A stretch of 47,208 nt of DNA, from IMG/VR virus record IMGVR_UViG_2721755498_000001; one strand, given 5' to 3'. Positions 1,493-47,169 of the stretch are shown in pieces (positions within the stretch are counted from its first letter, which is position 1; each line of letters starts with the position of its first letter). The notes under the pieces are model-generated. The model saw only the letters and a program-made list of their open reading frames with translations, was not told where the DNA came from and searched no databases. The DNA comes from a virus. Its lineage: Duplodnaviria; Heunggongvirae; Uroviricota; Caudoviricetes. The translations under genes and the position numbers were made by a program.

Positions 1493-3226
1493 TTAGTTAT
1501 TTGACAGATATGATGAGATGGTAGCAGAATCGACACCATGTCCACTTATCATAATAACTTTAAGACTCTTTATTAGTTCATTCTTGAAGCTATCCGATTG
1601 CACAGGATTTTTCTCGACCCAATATCGATATGGGTTATCTTTAACTCGTCCTTTGACTTGGTCCTGAAATTGAGTCGTATGTGCAAAATCTTTAAACAGT
1701 TTTCTCACTCTCCCGCCATGATTTTTGTTAACTTTTTTATAATTATCTATAAGGATTTTTAAATCAATCGGAGCGTTACCAATCTTTAGCGTTGTAATTA
1801 TGTCTTTAGCTGTTTTCATAAAAACAGATTTTGTAAATTTATTTTTATTTTCCCAATATGCATCATCAGGTGGTAAATTATATAAAAACTCAAAAATCAT
1901 TTGATCTGGAGGTAAGGTGCTTGGAAGCAAACATAAGTTTTTTTCTTTTTTGGCTTTTTTTGCATTAGCACTGTTGTCGTGAACAACATCACCGTCTAAG
2001 ACGATCAAGCTTTTAGCTGTAAATTCTGGTATTTTTCTTGCCATTAAGTCAAGCATGGCAGAGCAGCTAATATTTATATTCCCTAATGGATTTAATATTT
2101 TATTTATTTTTCGATCTGTTATCAATTGTTTGAAAAAGTCGAAACCTTCTTTGTCTTCAAAATATACATTTGCTTTTGGAAGACAAATGTCATCATTAAT
2201 TTTTACAGTTTCAACATGTAAATCAGCGTGGATATCTGTCCATGAAAGATTATTCTTTGTTTTAATATCTCCATATGTGTCTGTAAGATATATTGTTTTA
2301 AAGCTATCACTATCTTGTTTTGAACGATTATAGATATCCTCTATTATTAATGGAGAGTGCGAGGTCATGATTATTTGCAGATCGTATTGTTTTGCTGCTT
2401 TAGTTAGAATATTAATTAACTCTAACTGTGCAGCAGGGAAAAGACCTGCATCGGCTTCATCAATTAACAATATTCCGCCATGATAATCAGAATAAGTTTC
2501 CTTCAATCTTTTAAATGAAAAAATTGCTTGGATTAATTGTCCAACATTATCTTCACCAACAGATACTGATTGGTGATCATAATTGTCACCATGGACAACC
2601 ATTGAATCGATAGTACCTTTTGTTGCTGTTACTGAGCTTCCATTGTTTTTTAGTAAGAGTTGGTTACTCATCATTCTGATTTCATCAGAATTTTCATTGA
2701 TGTACTGAACATCCCGTGTTGAGTAATTAGTCCTTAATGTAATAGGAAGAAGTCGTGCTAAGCTTAAAAAAATAACAGGATGAGTAACGTTTCTACTTTG
2801 GTTTTTTTCCGGTATTGAATCATTTCCCCTGACTACAGGCCTTGATTTATCTCTGTCACTGTAGCTGTATAAACCTAATGTTAGTTTTTCAAGATGTTTG
2901 TTCGATGCACCATCATAGACACTAATTTTGACGTCCATTGAACCAGGAACATCAAATTGTTCTGAAAGCCTAAAATGTTCGCTGAAAGCTGACTTGAAGC
3001 TGCCATTTGTTAATGTTTTATATTGTGTTAAATCAGTCTCAGGTTTTTTGGTAAAGTCCTTTGTAAAGCTAAATATTTGGGCGATAATGCCAAGAATTGT
3101 GGATTTAGATGTGCCATTTTTACCACAAATAACAGTTAGGCGAGAACCAAACTCGATGTTTATATTTTTCAGTCCGCGAAACTTCACAACATTTATATTT
3201 TTTAGTTTGGTAATTTGATTTGCCAT
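1493..3226 (-). CDS. ABC-type ATPase (OLD/GajA-like) with putative C-terminal TOPRIM nuclease domain
   Basis: Walker A GKNGTSKST, Walker B ILLIDEADAGL, H-loop TSHSP; C-terminal E...DxD pattern (YFEDKEG ... IVLDGD) typical of TOPRIM. Start taken at the internal ATG (MANQITK) with upstream GGAG; the ORF is open to 3277. AT-rich; co-oriented with int. Confidence 0.7.
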   Translation of the reverse strand: MANQITKLKNINVVKFRGLKNINIEFGSRLTVICGKNGTSKSTILGIIAQIFSFTKDFTKKPETDLTQYKTLTNGSFKSAFSEHFRLSEQFDVPGSMDVKISVYDGASNKHLEKLTLGLYSYSDRDKSRPVVRGNDSIPEKNQSRNVTHPVIFLSLARLLPITLRTNYSTRDVQYINENSDEIRMMSNQLLLKNNGSSVTATKGTIDSMVVHGDNYDHQSVSVGEDNVGQLIQAIFSFKRLKETYSDYHGGILLIDEADAGLFPAAQLELINILTKAAKQYDLQIIMTSHSPLIIEDIYNRSKQDSDSFKTIYLTDTYGDIKTKNNLSWTDIHADLHVETVKINDDICLPKANVYFEDKEGFDFFKQLITDRKINKILNPLGNINISCSAMLDLMARKIPEFTAKSLIVLDGDVVHDNSANAKKAKKEKNLCLLPSTLPPDQMIFEFLYNLPPDDAYWENKNKFTKSVFMKTAKDIITTLKIGNAPIDLKILIDNYKKVNKNHGGRVRKLFKDFAHTTQFQDQVKGRVKDNPYRYWVEKNPVQSDSFKNELIKSLKVIMISGHGVDSATISSYLSNN

Positions 3227-3250
3227 GTTTGTATCTTGCTCCGTAAAATG

Positions 3251-3267
3251 GCCACAAATTGTGGCCA
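3251..3267. promoter_or_regulatory. Perfect 17-bp palindrome between int stop and ATPase start (terminator or operator candidate)
   Basis: ggccacaaattgtggcc at 3251-3267; followed by ATTTTA on the minus strand. Confidence 0.3.
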
Positions 3268-3284
3268 ATAGTTTCATGCTTGGA

Positions 3285-4451
3285 TTATATTGTTATCTTC
3301 TTCAAGCTTGTTTGTCCATCATATTCCTTCAGATATGAGCCATAGTGCCTGAAAAGCATCTCCGGTCCTTTATGCCCCATTTGAGCTGCAAGCCAAAACA
3401 GGTTTGCTCCCCGGCTGATATGGCGGGTGGCGAATGTATGCCTAGTTTGATATGGATTTCTGTAACGAATACCTGCTTTTCGCAATGTTGGCACCCATGC
3501 TTTTTTTCTGATTGCATCAGCACTTGCCCATGGCTTATTGGTCTTTGGATCTTCAAAGACAGTAGCATCCTTCATGAATGTAAATGGCTTCTGGTTTATC
3601 AACGCCAACATTGCTTCTTCAGTCAGTTCAACTTTACGGGTACCGGCTTTTGTCTTTGTTCCTTTGATAACTCCGACAACACTTGCGCTCTGAACATGGG
3701 CTGTTTTTCCAACAAAGTCGATATCATGCCATCGTAGGGCACATAATTCAGAACTACGCAGGCCTGTATGTATGGCGAACCGGAACAGATTTTCCCATTG
3801 TTTGTTTCCGGCTGCTGCTAGTAATGCATCAACTTCTGCTGGTGATAGCGGATCAACCACATAGCTGCTTTCTGCTTCTGACTTATCACTTTGGTAGCGC
3901 GAAGCTGTTACTAACGATACGGGGTTAATTTGAAGTACCCCATCGGTCACGGCTTCATCAAGTGCTGACCGTAGGAAAGATAACTGGTTGCGAATGGTTT
4001 TTAAGGTTGTTTTCTGGCTTTGAATCCACGCTTTCAGGGTTGCTGGTGTTAATTCACTTGCAGGGCAAATGTGAAGTGAGGCTAACGCACTACGGCATTT
4101 TTTATAGCCACCAATCGTAGAGGGTGAAAGTTTTCTTGTTTCGCAGATTTCAAGATATTCGTCCAGGTACATCTTTACCGTTTTGCCTGCAGCAGCATTA
4201 CCAAAAATTTTCAAACGAGCAGAACGGGGAAAATATTCTGCATAAATGAATGTTCCCCTTTCGATCTTATTATGGATTTCGCCGAGTGTACGCTCGGCGT
4301 ATTTAATGTTCTTTGGTGTTACTTCCAGATTGGAAAGCGGCTCACGACATCTAACTCCTTTGTAGGTGAAAGTTATATTGATCGTTTCTCCCTGGCGGTG
4401 TTTCCTGATTGTTACGCCGCGCGGTAGTTTGAGCAGTTTTGTCTGGCCCAT
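3285..4451 (-). CDS. int: Phage integrase, tyrosine recombinase
   Basis: 388 aa; C-terminal catalytic region with R...H..R...Y context (HTFATRHISRGANLFWLAAQMGHKGPEMLFRHYGSY); next to xis and the att end. Confidence 0.9.
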   Translation of the reverse strand: MGQTKLLKLPRGVTIRKHRQGETINITFTYKGVRCREPLSNLEVTPKNIKYAERTLGEIHNKIERGTFIYAEYFPRSARLKIFGNAAAGKTVKMYLDEYLEICETRKLSPSTIGGYKKCRSALASLHICPASELTPATLKAWIQSQKTTLKTIRNQLSFLRSALDEAVTDGVLQINPVSLVTASRYQSDKSEAESSYVVDPLSPAEVDALLAAAGNKQWENLFRFAIHTGLRSSELCALRWHDIDFVGKTAHVQSASVVGVIKGTKTKAGTRKVELTEEAMLALINQKPFTFMKDATVFEDPKTNKPWASADAIRKKAWVPTLRKAGIRYRNPYQTRHTFATRHISRGANLFWLAAQMGHKGPEMLFRHYGSYLKEYDGQTSLKKITI

Positions 4452-7176: not shown

Positions 7177-7539
7177 TTAATGACCTGCTGCGCGTAGTTT
7201 TCCGTCAGGTTCACCGGCAAGAGTCAGTAATTGTCCCTGGTCTTCCTGCAGAATAGTCAGGCGACCACCGCGATTGACATACATCGGTGTTTCGGTGGTG
7301 TCTTCTTCGGAAATTTTCCCGCGGTTAGTCGGGCGAACATATGAGAGTTTGTGTTTGATTTTCACACGGTTCTCATCAAATGGTTCGATTTCCAGGTTGA
7401 GCGAGACCTTACCTTTGGTTTTCGTGTTCATCACACCGGAAGCGACTTCACTGAGAACTGCGCCGATTTTGGTTTCAAATACGCCGCCGTCCAGCTCCCC
7501 GATAAATGCCTGCACATCAGTACTGCGTTCGCTAGCCAT
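7177..7539 (-). CDS. Small early protein, YfdP-like
   Basis: Start chosen at the internal ATG (MASERSTDV) preceded by GGAGCAGC; the longer 197-aa ORF upstream has no RBS and overlaps the structured leader. Confidence 0.5.
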   Translation of the reverse strand: MASERSTDVQAFIGELDGGVFETKIGAVLSEVASGVMNTKTKGKVSLNLEIEPFDENRVKIKHKLSYVRPTNRGKISEEDTTETPMYVNRGGRLTILQEDQGQLLTLAGEPDGKLRAAGH

Positions 7540-7587
7540 TTTGCTGCTCCTCATCATATCGACCCTGCAAGGTCGGTTAGTTTCTCC

Positions 7588-7723
7588 ACAAAACAGAGAA
7601 GAACACCTGCGGTGGCAGCCGCCCGGATGGATTGGGTTATGAGCCCGTCGTCCGGTGATGCTCTTCTCTGTTTTGTAAAAAGAGCGGTACCAGCCGGAAG
7701 CAAGGGTACAAACTGGTACCGCC
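7588..7723 (-). ncRNA. Structured non-coding leader / candidate sRNA in the leftward early transcript
   Basis: 15-bp perfect inverted repeat acaaaacagagaaga (7588-7602) / tcttctctgttttgt (7662-7676) with a GC-rich internal loop; second hairpin gcggtaccag (7683-7692) / ctggtaccgc (7714-7723); no ORF with an RBS in 7540-8240. Confidence 0.3.
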
Positions 7724-8170
7724 AAAGCAGTGGCTGTTGTGGTGGGGTTGTCACTCAGGCGTATGGTCAACCTGACAATCCGGTGTCCTCAACGGGGAAA
7801 GAGTAACCCCGCCATACTTACCGCCGCGCCATTTCGCGGATTACCACAACGCTGAGAGCACTTAGCCAGTTACAGCACCACACTTTGTCGCGGCTCCATA
7901 AATGCCCTCATCGTTGCACCCTGGTCTCTTCCCAGGCGTCAAACCGAATCGCCACGCTGGTTAGGCGTCTTATCAGCATCATCATTGACTTGCACATTCC
8001 GGCTACCTGGTTTGTTTGCCCGAGCAAGGAGTGGATTGTCCCCTTTAACGTCCCCAGACCGCTAACGACGCATGTGCCATACACCGTGTTACAACCAAAT
8101 TTTGTTAGTACCTTGTTTGTTTGTCTGGAAAGAAAGATAAAATGAAGTTGCGCATTATGCAAGTGTTTTT

Positions 8171-8187
8171 ATTGCGAGATATGCAAT
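8171..8187. promoter_or_regulatory. Candidate oL operator palindrome
   Basis: ATTGCgagatatGCAAT, a TTGC-N7-GCAA palindrome resembling the site between cI and cro. Confidence 0.35.
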
Positions 8188-8195
8188 TTAAAGGG

Positions 8196-8222
8196 TAATG
8201 AAAAGCCACCTTTGGGTGGCTA
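8196..8222 (-). terminator. Rho-independent terminator downstream of cI
   Basis: Hairpin gccacc-ttt-gggtggc (8205-8220) followed by a T-run on the minus strand, 20 nt after the cI stop. Confidence 0.45.
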
Positions 8223-8241
8223 ATTGATGAGGAGGTAAGGG

Positions 8242-8934
8242 TTAATTGTGTCGCTTAAGGGTTTGTGACTGGCTGATTAAGACCTTTCCAAAGACCATAA
8301 ACCGGTGTTCATTTTCGCTGGTAATTCCCCATTCACGGTAAATCTGGTTATCAGAAATCACCAGTAGTTTGTCAGGTATCATTTGCAGTCGTTTGACATA
8401 AATTTTATCATCAAAACCAAATACATAGATACCATCTCCATCAAACTGATTGATACTGACATCAACGAAGATGAGATCTCCTGGCTCAATGGTTGGACAC
8501 ATACTGTCCCCACGAACGTTGATAACTTTAATGTGATTGGCTGGCCGTCCGCCAAACATCGATACAGCATTATCAGTTCTGTATTCAATGGCATGAATCA
8601 CATCAATGACATCACCGCCCTGGATAAGGCCATTTCCCGCACTGGCACTGACATCCAGCATTTCAATACGGAATACATCCTTCACCTGCGCAACATCCTC
8701 ACTAATACTGTTTTTACATACAGTATTACTTTTGACGTCTGAGGTAAAGAGATCTGCAATATCAACACCTAAGCTCCTGGCAATATTACTCAGGGCTTGT
8801 TCAGTGAATTGTTTCTGCTTACCTGTTTCCAGGCGTGAGATATTCGCCGCATCCACTCCTATTGCTTCAGCGAGATCGGCGATCTTCATGTTCTTCGCCT
8901 GGCGAAGTTGTCTGACTCGGTTTCCTATGTTCAT
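8242..8934 (-). CDS. cI: CI-like prophage repressor (HTH plus S24 LexA-like peptidase domain)
   Basis: N-terminal HTH (MKIADLAEAIGVDAANISRLETG) and C-terminal S24 region (VRGDSMCPTIEPGDLIFVD ... KRL); divergent from cro. Confidence 0.9.
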   Translation of the reverse strand: MNIGNRVRQLRQAKNMKIADLAEAIGVDAANISRLETGKQKQFTEQALSNIARSLGVDIADLFTSDVKSNTVCKNSISEDVAQVKDVFRIEMLDVSASAGNGLIQGGDVIDVIHAIEYRTDNAVSMFGGRPANHIKVINVRGDSMCPTIEPGDLIFVDVSINQFDGDGIYVFGFDDKIYVKRLQMIPDKLLVISDNQIYREWGITSENEHRFMVFGKVLISQSQTLKRHN

Positions 8935-9031
8935 GCGTTTATTACATTTCTTTATTGCGCGTTAAGCAAATCAACTTGCGCAAAATATTTGCGTGAAATA
9001 ATATGCTCATCACGCAATATGTGGAGGTCAT
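8935..9031. promoter_or_regulatory. Divergent promoter/operator region (oR, pRM/pR) between cI and cro
   Basis: Repeated TTGCG-containing sites: ttgcgcgttaagcaa (8955-8969), ttgcgcaaaatatttgcgtgaa (8976-8997), cacgcaatatgtg (9010-9022); RBS GGAGG before the cro ATG. Confidence 0.6.
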
Positions 9032-9292
9032 ATGCAATCACCATTACGGAATGTGCGTAAGGCGCACGGATTTACTTTGCAGCATGTTGCTGCTGGCGTT
9101 CAGGTCAATCCAGCGACGCTGAGTCGTATTGAAAGACTGGAACAAGTTCCATCTATCGATCTTGCAGAACGTCTGGCCAATTTTTTTAAGGGTGAAATCA
9201 GCGAAATGCAGATTCTTTATCCGGCACGTTTTCAATCTAGCCAAAACCAGAATGGGTTTAAACCACAGGAACAGGAGGTAAGCCGTGGGTAA
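9032..9292 (+). CDS. cro: Cro-like HTH regulator
   Basis: 86 aa, HTH (GFTLQHVAAGVQVNPATLSRIE); divergent partner of cI. Confidence 0.75.
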   Translation: MQSPLRNVRKAHGFTLQHVAAGVQVNPATLSRIERLEQVPSIDLAERLANFFKGEISEMQILYPARFQSSQNQNGFKPQEQEVSRG

Positions 9293-13315: not shown

Positions 13316-14311
13316 GTGACCGTGAGAGCACTACTGACCCCTGAAATTGCCCCGCGTATGGGGATCGTATTGTTCAGGCCCGGTTCAGAGCTGATGCCCC
13401 TGTTTATGCAGGGGCGTGTCCTGCTGGAGCCTGAGCCGGAGCATTATTCATCTTTCGCCAGTGGTGCCGTTCCCGCGGCGTCACAACCGCTGGCGGATGA
13501 TCCTGCTGTTCGGGCCGTGTTCCGCAATGAGGCAGTGATCCGTCGTGCTGGTGGCGTGGAATGTCTTGAAAGCTGGTTACTTCGTGAAAAAGGCTGCCAG
13601 TGGCCTCATTCCGACTGGCACAGCGAGAACATGACCACAATGCGACACGCTCCGGGTGCAATCCGTCTGTGCTGGCACTGCGATAACCAGCTGCGCGATC
13701 AGTTCACGGAACGGCTGGAATCAATGGCAACGGATAACTGTGCCCGCTGGGTGTTGTCTGTTGTGCGTCGGGATCTCGGTTTTGATGACAGTCACGTTGT
13801 GACAATGCCGGAACTGTGCTGGTGGCTGATTCGTAATGACCTGGCGGATGCCTTACCGGAAAGTGCAGCCCGTAAGGCACTGAGATTACCGAAGCCTGTT
13901 GTGCCGTCTGTCACCCGGGAAAGTGACCTTGTGCCTTCGGTTCCTGCTACCAGCATCATCCAGGATAAGGCGAAAAAGGTGCTGGCGCTGAAAGTGGATC
14001 CGGAGTCGCCGGAGTCTTTTATGTTACGCCCAAAACGTCGCCGCTGGGTTAATGAAAAGTACACGCGCTGGGTTAAGACACAGCCGTGTGCATGTTGTGG
14101 AAAGCCCGCTGATGATCCCCACCACCTGATAGGTTACGGTCAGGGTGGAATGGGAACAAAAGCGCATGACCTTTTTGTGTTGCCTTTGTGCAGAAAGCAT
14201 CACGACGAGCTGCATGCGGATACCGTGGCATTTGAAGAAAAGTATGGCTCCCAGTTGGAGCTGATATTTCGTTTTATCGATCGCGCGCTGGCAATTGGCG
14301 TATTGGCGTAA
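13316..14311 (+). CDS. Phage protein with C-terminal Cys/His zinc-binding motif (DUF968-like)
   Basis: 331 aa; C-terminal CACCGKP...HH...CRKHHDELH; position in the nin-like region. Confidence 0.45.
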   Translation: MTVRALLTPEIAPRMGIVLFRPGSELMPLFMQGRVLLEPEPEHYSSFASGAVPAASQPLADDPAVRAVFRNEAVIRRAGGVECLESWLLREKGCQWPHSDWHSENMTTMRHAPGAIRLCWHCDNQLRDQFTERLESMATDNCARWVLSVVRRDLGFDDSHVVTMPELCWWLIRNDLADALPESAARKALRLPKPVVPSVTRESDLVPSVPATSIIQDKAKKVLALKVDPESPESFMLRPKRRRWVNEKYTRWVKTQPCACCGKPADDPHHLIGYGQGGMGTKAHDLFVLPLCRKHHDELHADTVAFEEKYGSQLELIFRFIDRALAIGVLA

Positions 14312-14324
14312 GTGGAGAACGAGC

Positions 14325-15077
14325 ATGAACCTTGAAGCCTTACCAAAATATTACTCCCCAAAATCTCCAAAATTGAGCGATGACGCACCGGCGACAGGCT
14401 CAGGTGGTTTAACGATTACGGATGTGATGGCTGCGCAGGGGATGGTGCAGTCGAAAGCACCGCTTGGGTTTGCCTTATTCCTGGCAAAAGTTGGTGTTCA
14501 GGATCCTCAGTTTGCGATTGAAGGTCTGCTCAATTACGCGATGGCACTGGATAACCCGACATTGAACAAATTGAGTGAAGAAACCCGGTTACAGATCATC
14601 CCTTACCTTGTGAATTTTGCCTTTGCTGATTATTCCAGGTCTGCGGCAAGTAAGGCTCGCTGTGAGCATTGTGCTGGTACTGGATTTCATAACGTATTGC
14701 GCGAAGTGGTGAAACACTCCAGAAGCGGGGAATCTGTTATCAAGGAAGAGTGGGTGAAGGAACTATGTCAGCATTGCCATGGTAAGGGAGAAGTCAGCAC
14801 AGCGTGCAGAGGGTGTAAGGGAAAAGGTATTGTCCTGGATGAAAAAAGGACCCGACTTCATGGCACGCCTGTTTATAAGATTTGTGGGCGTTGCAATGGA
14901 AACCGGTTTAGCCGTTTACCAACCACACTGGCGCGGCATCATGTCCAGAAGCTGGTACCAGACCTGACGGATTATCAGTGGTACAAAGGATATGCAGATG
15001 TCATTGATAAACTGGTTACAAAGTGCTGGCAGGAAGAAGCATATGCAGAGATACAATTGAGAAAGGTAACAAGATAA
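14325..15077 (+). CDS. Q: Late-gene antiterminator Q-like protein
   Basis: Cys-rich zinc motif (CEHCAGTG...CQHCHGKG...CRGCKGKG...CGRCNG); RBS GGAG before the ATG at 14325; followed by a strong terminator. Confidence 0.65.
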   Translation: MNLEALPKYYSPKSPKLSDDAPATGSGGLTITDVMAAQGMVQSKAPLGFALFLAKVGVQDPQFAIEGLLNYAMALDNPTLNKLSEETRLQIIPYLVNFAFADYSRSAASKARCEHCAGTGFHNVLREVVKHSRSGESVIKEEWVKELCQHCHGKGEVSTACRGCKGKGIVLDEKRTRLHGTPVYKICGRCNGNRFSRLPTTLARHHVQKLVPDLTDYQWYKGYADVIDKLVTKCWQEEAYAEIQLRKVTR

Positions 15078-42062: not shown

Positions 42063-42646
42063 TGGTATTCAGAATGAGTGAACAACCACGGACCATAACA
42101 ATTTATAATCTGCTGGCCGGAACTAATGAATTTATTGGTGAAGGTGATGCATATATTCCGCCTCATACAGGTCTGCCAGCAAACAGTACCGATATTGCAC
42201 CGCCAGATATTCCGGCAGGCTTCGTGGCTGTTTTCAACAGTGATGAGGCATCGTGGCATCTCGTTGAAGATCATCGGGGTAAAACGGTTTATGACGTAGC
42301 GTCAGGGGACGCGTTATTTATTTCTGAACTCGGTCCGTTACCGGAAAATGTTACCTGGTTATCGCCGGAAGGGGAGTTTCAGAAGTGGAACGGCACAGCC
42401 TGGGTGAAAGATGCAGAAGCAGAAAAACTGTTCCGGATCCGGGAGGCGGAAGAAACAAAAAACAGCCTGATGCAGGTAGCCAGTGAGCATATTGCGCCAC
42501 TTCAGGATGCTGTAGATCTGGAAATCGCAACGGAGGAAGAAACCTCATTGCTGGAAGCCTGGAAAAAGTATCGGGTGTTGCTGAACCGTGTTGATACATC
42601 AACTGCACCGGATATTGAGTGGCCAGAAGAACCAGACACCGTGTAA
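42062..42646 (+). CDS. tfa: Tail fibre assembly protein
   Basis: 194 aa immediately after stf; N-terminal region resembles Tfa. Confidence 0.75.
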
Positions 42647-46806: not shown

Positions 46807-46839
46807 TGGTGGAGCTGGCGGGAGTTGAACCCGCGTCCG
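46807..46839. repeat. attR core: ssrA 3' end, duplicated at 409-441
   Basis: Matches 409-441 with one mismatch. Confidence 0.85.
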
Positions 46840-47169
46840 AAATTCCTACATCCTCGGTACTACATGCTTAGTCAGTCTTTACATTCGCTTGCCAGCTGCG
46901 GACGGACACGCCACTAACAAACTAGCCTGATTAAGTTTTAACGCTTCAACCCCAGGCAGGACTTCCACGCGATCTCTTTTGGGTTTGACCTCTCTTGATC
47001 CCCGTCCTAAGAGCGGAGGCTAGGGAGAGAGGGCTCTAAGCAGGTTATTAAGCTGCTAAAGCGTAGTTTTCGTCGTTTGCGACTATTTTTTGCGGCTTTT
47101 TACGAGGCCAACCGCCCCTCGGCATGCACCTTGGGTTTCGCAAATCCCGTCGAATCCAGAATCAGCCCC
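46807..47169 (-). ncRNA. ssrA: tmRNA (SsrA), 363 nt
   Basis: Reverse complement runs from GGGGCTGATTCTGGATTCGACGGG to the tRNA-like 3' end CCAGCTCCACCA; tag-encoding region recognisable. Confidence 0.95.

Follow-up and report, generated by a model that had tools for sequence, protein, structure and literature searches.

Between the repressor gene and the first early-left gene of a lambdoid prophage (IMG/VR record IMGVR_UViG_2721755498_000001, Caudoviricetes; its 47,208 nucleotides (nt) are hereafter called the window) we recognised an RNA cassette built like the DicF locus of prophage Qin. We reason, with a probability of roughly 65%, that it is a cassette of the DicF kind placed in the leader of the early-left (pL) transcript, whose hairpin at 7683-7723 provides the 3' end of a processed regulator, probably one that depends on Hfq, and at the same time acts as an attenuator. 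The analysis shows on which strand the cassette lies, how it folds, that it is homologous to the DicF precursor domain, where it stands, that it has the features of a terminator, how its modules are exchanged and how widely it is distributed; since the architecture is the same as at the Qin locus, we place the cassette among the members of the DicF kind.

The gap that houses the cassette is the untranslated minus-strand leader of the pL transcript, densely folded and non-coding. Because the LexA-type (cI-like) repressor gene (8242-8934) lies on the minus strand and the cro-like gene (9032-9292) on the plus strand, the early-left operon is assigned to the minus strand; the initial annotation of this region gave no strand for its two inverted repeats, both of which belong to the minus one. 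Its description of about 700 base pairs (bp) that are GC-rich and free of any supported open reading frame (ORF) was borne out: the gap measures 702 bp from the repressor gene to the first ORF, its G+C fraction is 0.53-0.565 (vs. 0.38-0.45 for cI and the promoter region), and the ORFs inside it lack support because homologues carry 22- and 25-nt insertions within them and because paired positions covary. By BLAST against complete E. coli genomes the gap is a mosaic.

The pseudoknotted domain and the probable small RNA at the DicF position

The most conserved element of the leader, absent from the initial annotation, lies between the two repeats and the promoter. This element, module C (7736-7850, minus strand), is a pseudoknotted domain of 115 nt that shares homology with the body of the 190-nt DicF precursor. 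We collected 120 IMG/VR phage contigs by a 16-base pattern (the 16 positions of which are invariant by this method of collection, hence uninformative on conservation), aligned 48 distinct copies, those of Qin and phage P1 included, and read the structure from compensatory changes. Six helices were named (the counting tool splits P1 and thus arrives at seven): P1 (7843-7850 / 7736-7743), P2 (7835-7839 / 7824-7828), P3 (7820-7823 / 7781-7784), P4 (7812-7817 / 7761-7766), P5 (7807-7811 / 7793-7797) and P6 (7773-7778 / 7748-7753), among which P4, with the strands GUAUGG/CCAUAC, is the pseudoknot that crosses two other helices. Paired cells make up 94.6% over the 48 sequences, a share that drops to 28-52% once partners are shifted by one to three columns; 13 pairs are changed on both sides, and none of 500 shuffles reaches the score.

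The covariance model of this domain (R1) finds a single copy in the window (155 bits) and scores between 98 and 149 bits over P1, Qin and phage Evi (98 bits in P1, 148 bits in Qin). A scan of a species-dereplicated genome collection with GCGGCGGNAAGNATGG gave only chance matches in unrelated bacteria, and these loci served as negative control DNA, in which R1 stays at or below 19.6 bits over 728 kb. Module C is present in 4260 of 5426 complete E. coli genomes (~79%), with up to 8 copies per genome, as well as in phage P1 and P1-type phage-plasmids, and is never annotated. Rfam was searched at gathering threshold over the whole window and at E <= 10 over 7300-8400; this check, suggested by the initial annotation, gave no match to the leader at either setting, so that module C corresponds to no family there. 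The Rfam tRNA model is without a match in 7300-8400, and ARAGORN reports the transfer-messenger RNA (tmRNA) gene as its sole hit in the window, the leader being free of tRNA. The literature, including a full-text search for the sequences themselves, yielded no published fold of module C.

The link to DicF comes from Qin, where the sequence between ydfC and dicB is ~93% identical to 7744-7850 of the window and the module C-like stretch ends ~25 nt upstream of dicF as placed by Rfam. The Qin operon gives a 190-nt DicF species, the 5' end of which depends on ribonuclease III (RNase III) and which RNase E converts to a 53-nt form (PMC10448788). Counted from the Rfam DicF match, the 5' end of the 190-nt species would fall at position 4113 of the Qin locus (L002), a few bases before module C, and therefore module C is the body of the known long DicF form. 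At two further loci (L057 and L079) module C is followed by AACAGGCAAGAGCACU... and by no terminator hairpin; as AACAGGCAAGAGCACU resembles the start of the terminal helix of module B (see below), the modules may occur in other orders.

Module C is followed in the window by a unit of ~59 nt (7677-7735, minus strand) at the DicF position, which doubles as an intrinsic terminator in the pL leader. It opens with 12 nt of linker or seed (7724-7735), continues into a hairpin (7683-7723) of 13 bp whose pyrimidine-rich loop has 15 nt and closes with the tail CUUUUU (7677-7682), so that the order on the minus strand is AGCCACUGCUUU, GGCGGUACCAG, the loop (which includes UGUACCCUUGCUUCC), CUGGUACCGCU and CUUUUU. 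The hairpin folds better than shuffled sequences (z = -3.13; 1 of 200 shuffles as good) and has the G+C-rich stem followed by a U run on the transcribed strand that is expected of an intrinsic terminator. The initial annotation had noted a 10-bp stem here, and all ten pairs exist, at 7684-7693 / 7713-7722, one base away from where it had placed them; it had passed over the stem as a terminator and its extension to 13 pairs (7683-7723) ahead of CUUUUU. A simple terminator scan missed the hairpin because the loop exceeds its 8-nt limit; the equivalent hairpin of a related locus (L001) was called by that scan.

The stem of this unit starts like that of DicF (UUUGGCGGUACCAGUUU vs. UUUGGCGGUAUCAGUUU, 16 of 17 positions identical, with the common consensus UUUGGCGGUAYCAGUUU). 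The processed, DicF-like small RNA that the initial annotation had proposed by precedent thus gains a likely counterpart in sequence, through the ~93% identity to what precedes dicF, the DicF position and the start of the stem. A U-rich run before a stem, combined with a U tail, is the usual Hfq-binding module, and by analogy the U-rich run and U tail of the window unit would fit it. Units of the window type occur in 1991 of the 5426 genomes (over a third), never annotated as RNA, and their loop is nearly invariant (55 loci, 18 sequence variants), which is unlike drift.

Several observations weigh against our interpretation. Neither Rfam search, at gathering threshold (48 bits for DicF) in the window or at E <= 10 over 7300-8400, returned DicF, which the same search finds in Qin (76.7 bits) and phage Evi (76.4 bits); the model is blind to the window unit because the DicF 5' seed UUUCUGGUGAC is absent and the loop is replaced. 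The single-stranded 5' segment is just 12 nt long, and a crude full-length duplex prediction against the ftsZ leader left the small RNAs, DicF included, inseparable from shuffles. The hairpin could be purely a terminator, and cleavage by RNase III as well as by RNase E at the window locus is put forward by analogy alone.

Two boxA-like sequences were weighed as possible nut-like sites and then discarded: UGCUCUCAG, found where module B ends, takes part in the pairing of that module's helix, and CGCUCUUUUUACAA, in the terminator tail, reads CGCCCUUUUU in relatives and is not conserved.

Units and domains of the exchangeable slot

Downstream of module C, the IMG/VR phage contigs carry at least 10 different hairpin/seed units, nearly all of which have UU(U)GGCGG at the start and a U run at the end. 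They include DicF, and the window type is the commonest in the IMG/VR sample. The loops of the variants are C/U-rich, as is the region of DicF that pairs with the ribosome-binding site of ftsZ (PMC5069750). Linkers and loops recombine independently across the units: e14 and SfV have the stem of the window, e14 has another loop, and the linkers of both are different. From module C to the terminator the linker measures ~10 to 45 nt, with unrelated sequences.

The domain before the hairpin is exchanged as well. Among the IMG/VR loci it is module C in 73, a tRNA in 30, a third domain in 25 and something else in 8 (alternative occupants lie at L001 2849-3004, L247 2625-2846 and L248 2336-2551, and in L251, L253 and related loci). 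Phages of the mEp460 type have the third domain in the place of module C, and prophages of the Stx/TL-2011b type a genuine tRNA-Arg(UCU) after module B. In e14 and SfV the window-type small RNA stands behind an STnc100-like closed domain (29-39.5 bits, below the threshold of 47), and a domain of this kind also comes after DicF in Qin. Every occupant of the slot is followed by a GGCGG...CCGCC hairpin and a U run, and all those other than tRNA are closed by the helix GUUGUGG/CCACAAC. The tRNA-Arg in the slot fits an operon of processed stable RNAs, and its substitution suggests that modules B and C may have the role of a processing or stability handle.

In two loci (L017 and L055) the units have much longer hairpins, and their loops show a Shine-Dalgarno-like AGGAGGA followed by GUG or AUG; such units might encode a tiny peptide or sequester a sequence that resembles a ribosome-binding site.

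Flanking modules of the leader and the prophage setting

Between the putative pL and module C lies module B (7900-8108, minus strand), a branched, conserved leader RNA of ~200 nt. With RNAalifold, 35 pairs were predicted from 13 diverse copies and compensatory changes appear in 8 of these pairs; the conserved blocks are UAUGGCACAUG, AGCGGUC, GGUAGCCGGAAUGUGCAAGUC, CACCA...GGCGAU and GGAAGAG. Module B is without an Rfam family; the covariance model built from it (R2) finds a single copy in the window (215 bits), matches phage P1 between tRNA-Ile and ban, matches directly upstream of tRNA-Arg in Stx-type prophages, and has no match in Qin, e14 or SfV. Copies outside the window lie at L003 4764-4976 and L001 3057-3266. 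The module ends in a long helix (7847-7916, minus strand), formed by CAACGAUGAGGGCA (7916-7903) and UGCUCUCAGCGUUG (7860-7847) with 13 of 14 pairs; both strands are conserved in the tRNA-Arg version, divergent copies have GUAGUGAAGAGAGCA / UGCUCUCUUCACUAC, and the 3' strand overlaps P1 of module C. As this strand abuts module C, a cut here is a candidate for the event that creates the long form, and the terminal helix may be a processing site. A small ORF within module B (MCKSMMMLIRRL...) was rejected, since it is not conserved in the tRNA-Arg version. In a P7-like contig (L008, ~1693-1760) we observed, between module B and the next ORF, UUUUCUGGUGA, which is identical to the DicF 5' seed and may be a chance match.

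Right after the U tail of the small RNA begins module E (7588-7676, minus strand), a hairpin in the shape of a Y, whose base stem of 21 bp carries two apical arms and which ends 36 nt before the Shine-Dalgarno sequence of the first gene (GAGGAG, 7547-7552, minus strand). The 15-bp perfect repeat of the initial annotation (7588-7602 / 7662-7676) exists and forms the base of this hairpin, the full arms (7588-7612 / 7652-7676) being 25 nt long and 84% complementary. On the minus strand module E folds to -47.5 kcal/mol, compared with -23.7 +/- 3.4 for shuffles (z = -7.08; 0 of 200 as good). Over 9 homologues its base stem is 95.8% paired and the whole module 92%, as opposed to 39-47% after sliding, with 6 pairs changed on both sides; the pairing is thus kept among homologues in modules C and E alike, which answers the check by folding and covariance that had been suggested along with the repeats. 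One apical arm bears the conserved CCGGACGACGGGCUCAUAACCCAAUCCAUCCGG and the other varies by 22-25 nt, a variation that rules out a conserved reading frame. Module E persists in several IMG/VR contigs, in SfV and in e14, where the dubious ORF ymfH is annotated over it, and the first genes behind it differ. Its 21-bp stem has the length of nearly perfect double-stranded RNA (at least 20 bp) typical of RNase III hairpins, and this length, together with its place between the leader elements and the first ribosome-binding site, suggests that it may be cut by RNase III, as is the hairpin of the lambda N leader. It is directly followed by GGAGAAAC (7580-7587, minus strand), invariant in the alignment of the 9 homologues, and then by the small hairpin CCGACCUUGCAGGGUCGA (7559-7576, minus strand), which is not significant alone (z = -0.38).

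Two ORFs of the window that lie over the small RNA and the Y-shaped hairpin (7554-7754 and 7177-7770) are probably spurious. The same probably holds for ymfH of e14 in K-12 (L247 2502-2813), SfII_35 (L329 1068-1406) and the 'hypothetical protein' ORFs of several phages at this place, given the RNA covariation and indels that are not multiples of three.

The prophage adjoins the tmRNA gene (46807-47169, minus strand), which lies at the end of the window and points to ssrA as the likely site of integration. Its first early-left ORF (7177-7539, minus strand, ATG at 7539) encodes a YfdP-like protein of 120 amino acids (aa) without a Pfam family, a homologue of which is annotated as YfdP in phiSTEC1575-Stx2k, and the early-left gene order is YfdP-like ORF, DUF2303, YfbR-like and integrase. 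A cII-like gene comes after cro, and Q (14295-15077) is the sole antiterminator recognised in the window. The repressor gene is followed by an intrinsic terminator called by the terminator scan (8204-8221, minus strand; AGCCACCCAAAGGUGGCU and then UUUC). A search of the window for TTGCG-N6-GCAA found 5 exact matches, 3 of which flank cI: we take those at 8148-8162 and 8172-8186 for the left operators (OL), and the third copy lies on the other side of cI (8955-8969); judged by this pattern, the repeats are putative operators. The candidate pL (8134-8162, minus strand) has a -35 box TTGCAT (8157-8162), a -10 box TATCTT (8134-8139) and a 17-nt spacer. It was not called at 8134-8162 by a consensus promoter scan, and we assign its position and a possible start site near 8127 with low confidence.

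Beyond the integrase gene, at the end of the prophage, a minus-strand ATPase of 594 aa (AAA_15, AAA_21 and a weak SMC_N-type N-terminus) stands beside an ORF of 299 aa (514-1413 and 1493-3277 for the pair), possibly a cargo module of the defence or toxin type. The late region contains a full-length Rfam match to IS009 (229.5 bits, 42405-42603, plus strand), which has been reported close to the PasB small RNA (bioRxiv 10.64898/2026.05.13.724894).

Proposed function and relation to known systems

Here, we envisage the following course of events. Upon loss of the repressor, pL would transcribe module B, module C and then the ~59-nt unit, whose hairpin and U tail would halt part of the polymerases; by halting some of them the unit would serve as a small RNA's 3' end and would also attenuate the early-left operon. 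By analogy with Qin, the terminated RNA would be trimmed to a stable long form (module C and the small RNA, ~175-180 nt), and an RNase E cut in the short single-stranded linker would release a short form, which may pair with other RNAs in an Hfq-dependent way, by means of its linker and of its pyrimidine-rich (anti-Shine-Dalgarno-like) loop. The targets of this short form should differ from those of DicF, given that seed and loop differ. In read-through transcripts RNase III would cut the Y-shaped hairpin and so, judged by the lambda precedent, would likely part the RNA cassette from the first gene's mRNA. All that is said of processing, of Hfq binding and of targets is inferred; in Qin, terminated and read-through transcripts both exist (PMC10448788).

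A simpler account sees in the hairpin at 7683-7723 a terminator or insulator of the leader that keeps cI transcription from running on and weakens transcription from pL into the early-left genes; no functional trans-acting RNA would be made, and the variation of seeds and loops would be drift. Every feature of an intrinsic terminator is indeed found at 7683-7723, the hairpin separates the repressor gene from early genes that may be harmful, phages differ widely in their loops and linkers, and the duplex test against the ftsZ leader (uninformative even for DicF) gave no target. We nevertheless deem this account unlikely, considering that the unit at the same position in Qin is DicF, a proven regulator according to PMC10448788 and PMC5069750, that the window-type loop hardly varies over the 55 loci (18 variants), and that the U-rich run and U tail would, by analogy, suit Hfq. 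Another possibility is that module B, module C or both modify the polymerase in cis and so ensure read-through of this terminator and of later ones in a lambdoid phage without N, as put does in function and not in ancestry. The initial annotation had stated that no N-like gene is evident, and this stands: the canonical position is taken by the YfdP-like, DUF2303 and YfbR-like genes, and Q alone was recognised. The domains are complex and strongly conserved, they lie upstream of a strong terminator that expression of the operon must pass, and the C1-controlled Pban promoter of P1 has module C just downstream of it. The 15-nt loop alone may leave the terminator leaky, however. Moreover, a tRNA or unrelated domains can stand in for module C before the same kind of terminator, module B is missing in Qin, e14 and SfV despite that terminator, and in Qin module C comes after three ORFs and termination at dicF is still prominent (1146-nt transcript).

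The initial annotation had named HK022 put as the model for such an element, and homology offers it no support. The put RNA is a 73-nt V of two stems with a triplex and requires no protein factor (PMC9378689), a property that speaks for an RNA of this sort in a phage lacking N. Its suppression of terminators works via the zinc-binding domain of the beta-prime subunit. In local alignment to the leader, putL and putR (taken from the phage record) scored 20 and 18, at the level of shuffles (17.5 +/- 2.1-2.2; 46 of 300 as high as putL), whereas putL and putR are clearly related to each other (score 35). The fold and size are different, modules B and C are each present in one copy in the window, and the pR operon has none: cro (9032-9292) overlaps the next ORF (which starts at 9285), leaving no room for a putR equivalent or a pR leader. 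Membership in the put family was thus rejected, and a polymerase-modifying role of independent ancestry strikes us as quite improbable. Hardly credible, in our view, is a riboswitch with module C as its ligand-sensing aptamer and the following hairpin as the expression platform. A domain that is pseudoknotted, highly conserved and placed immediately upstream of an intrinsic terminator would be in keeping with it, yet the linker between the two varies from ~10 to 45 nt with unrelated sequences, inspection by eye showed no conserved alternative pairing of the terminator arm, module C swaps with tRNA and other domains, Rfam gave no riboswitch match (E <= 10, 7300-8400), and the context of a phage operon offers no metabolic logic.

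Beyond the cassette of the DicF kind, we entertain a more speculative idea, of rather low probability, that modules B and C and the alternates C' and C'' are undescribed stable RNAs of phages with a function of their own, interchangeable with tRNA in a 'stable-RNA slot' of early or moron transcripts. One of them could be a new factor-independent antiterminator for N-less lambdoid phages and the ban operon of P1; such an RNA could also be a tRNA surrogate that recruits processing enzymes, or a decoy for host defences that target tRNA.

DicF has been treated as a single small RNA, and our data suggest that it is one member of a combinatorial family, in which a common start of the terminator stem is combined with varied seeds and loops behind varied folded domains or a tRNA. 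The window type of this family is carried by more than a third of the complete E. coli genomes, unannotated or under spurious 'hypothetical protein' and ymfH calls. The 115-nt domain that makes up most of the long DicF species now has a pseudoknotted fold supported by covariation, which provides a handle on the purpose of that long form and on early-left expression past the leader terminator in N-less lambdoid phages. The architecture of a DicF-type cassette is already known from Qin; the recognition of the pseudoknotted domain, module B and the combinatorial exchange (that with tRNA included) appears to be new.

Several known systems share parts of this layout. In the lambda N leader an RNase III hairpin lies between the leader elements and the Shine-Dalgarno sequence of the first pL gene, and module E likewise is a long hairpin before that sequence; its own sequence is unrelated to the lambda one, and it differs in being Y-shaped, in its conserved side arm and in the invariant GGAGAAAC that follows. 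Small RNAs are also derived from tRNA trailers, as with 3'ETS-leuZ and the stable 'species 1 and 2' RNAs of the T4 tRNA cluster. In related phages the hairpin and U-run unit is similarly the 3' trailer of a real tRNA-Arg, whereas module C, which takes the place of that tRNA, is not a tRNA, and its processing by RNase P would be pure conjecture. HK022 put is comparable in being a structured RNA upstream of terminators in the early leader of an N-less lambdoid phage, and differs in sequence, fold, size and copy number.

STnc100 (RF02076) and PasD have, like the window cassette, a folded domain closed by a helix and then a terminator hairpin, and both are Hfq-associated (bioRxiv 10.64898/2026.05.13.724894). 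The STnc100 model (threshold 47 bits) has no match in the window, nor at E <= 10 in 7300-8400. Unlike the pL leader of the window, PasD and one STnc100 copy sit in the late region, the former near Q (bioRxiv 10.64898/2026.05.13.724894) and the latter 75 nt downstream of the stx2 operon (PMC12370729). None of the Pas small RNAs was accepted as the window locus: PasA, PasC and PasD lie near Q and the lysis genes, and PasB in a structural-gene operon near IS009.

The ban operon of P1 has module C just after the C1-controlled Pban promoter, adjoining an annotated 'dicF-like region' (AF234173). As in the window, module C there follows a repressor-controlled promoter and precedes a hairpin with a U run, and module B belongs to the same operon; in contrast to the window, module C precedes module B, which follows at a distance of 2.3 kb, the hairpin has another sequence and P1 is not lambdoid. 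The closest parallel is DicF/dicBF of Qin (RF00039). There the stem is not the perfect one of the window (13 bp, 15-nt loop), the seed UUUCUGGUGAC and the loop are those replaced in the window, the cassette comes after three small ORFs rather than directly in the pL leader after module B, and it is followed by an STnc100-like domain instead of the Y-shaped hairpin. Both loci are nevertheless repressor-controlled early operons of lambdoid prophages, in which the same 115-nt domain (~93% identity) precedes a unit with the same stem start and a U tail, and in which the downstream genes are reached by read-through only.

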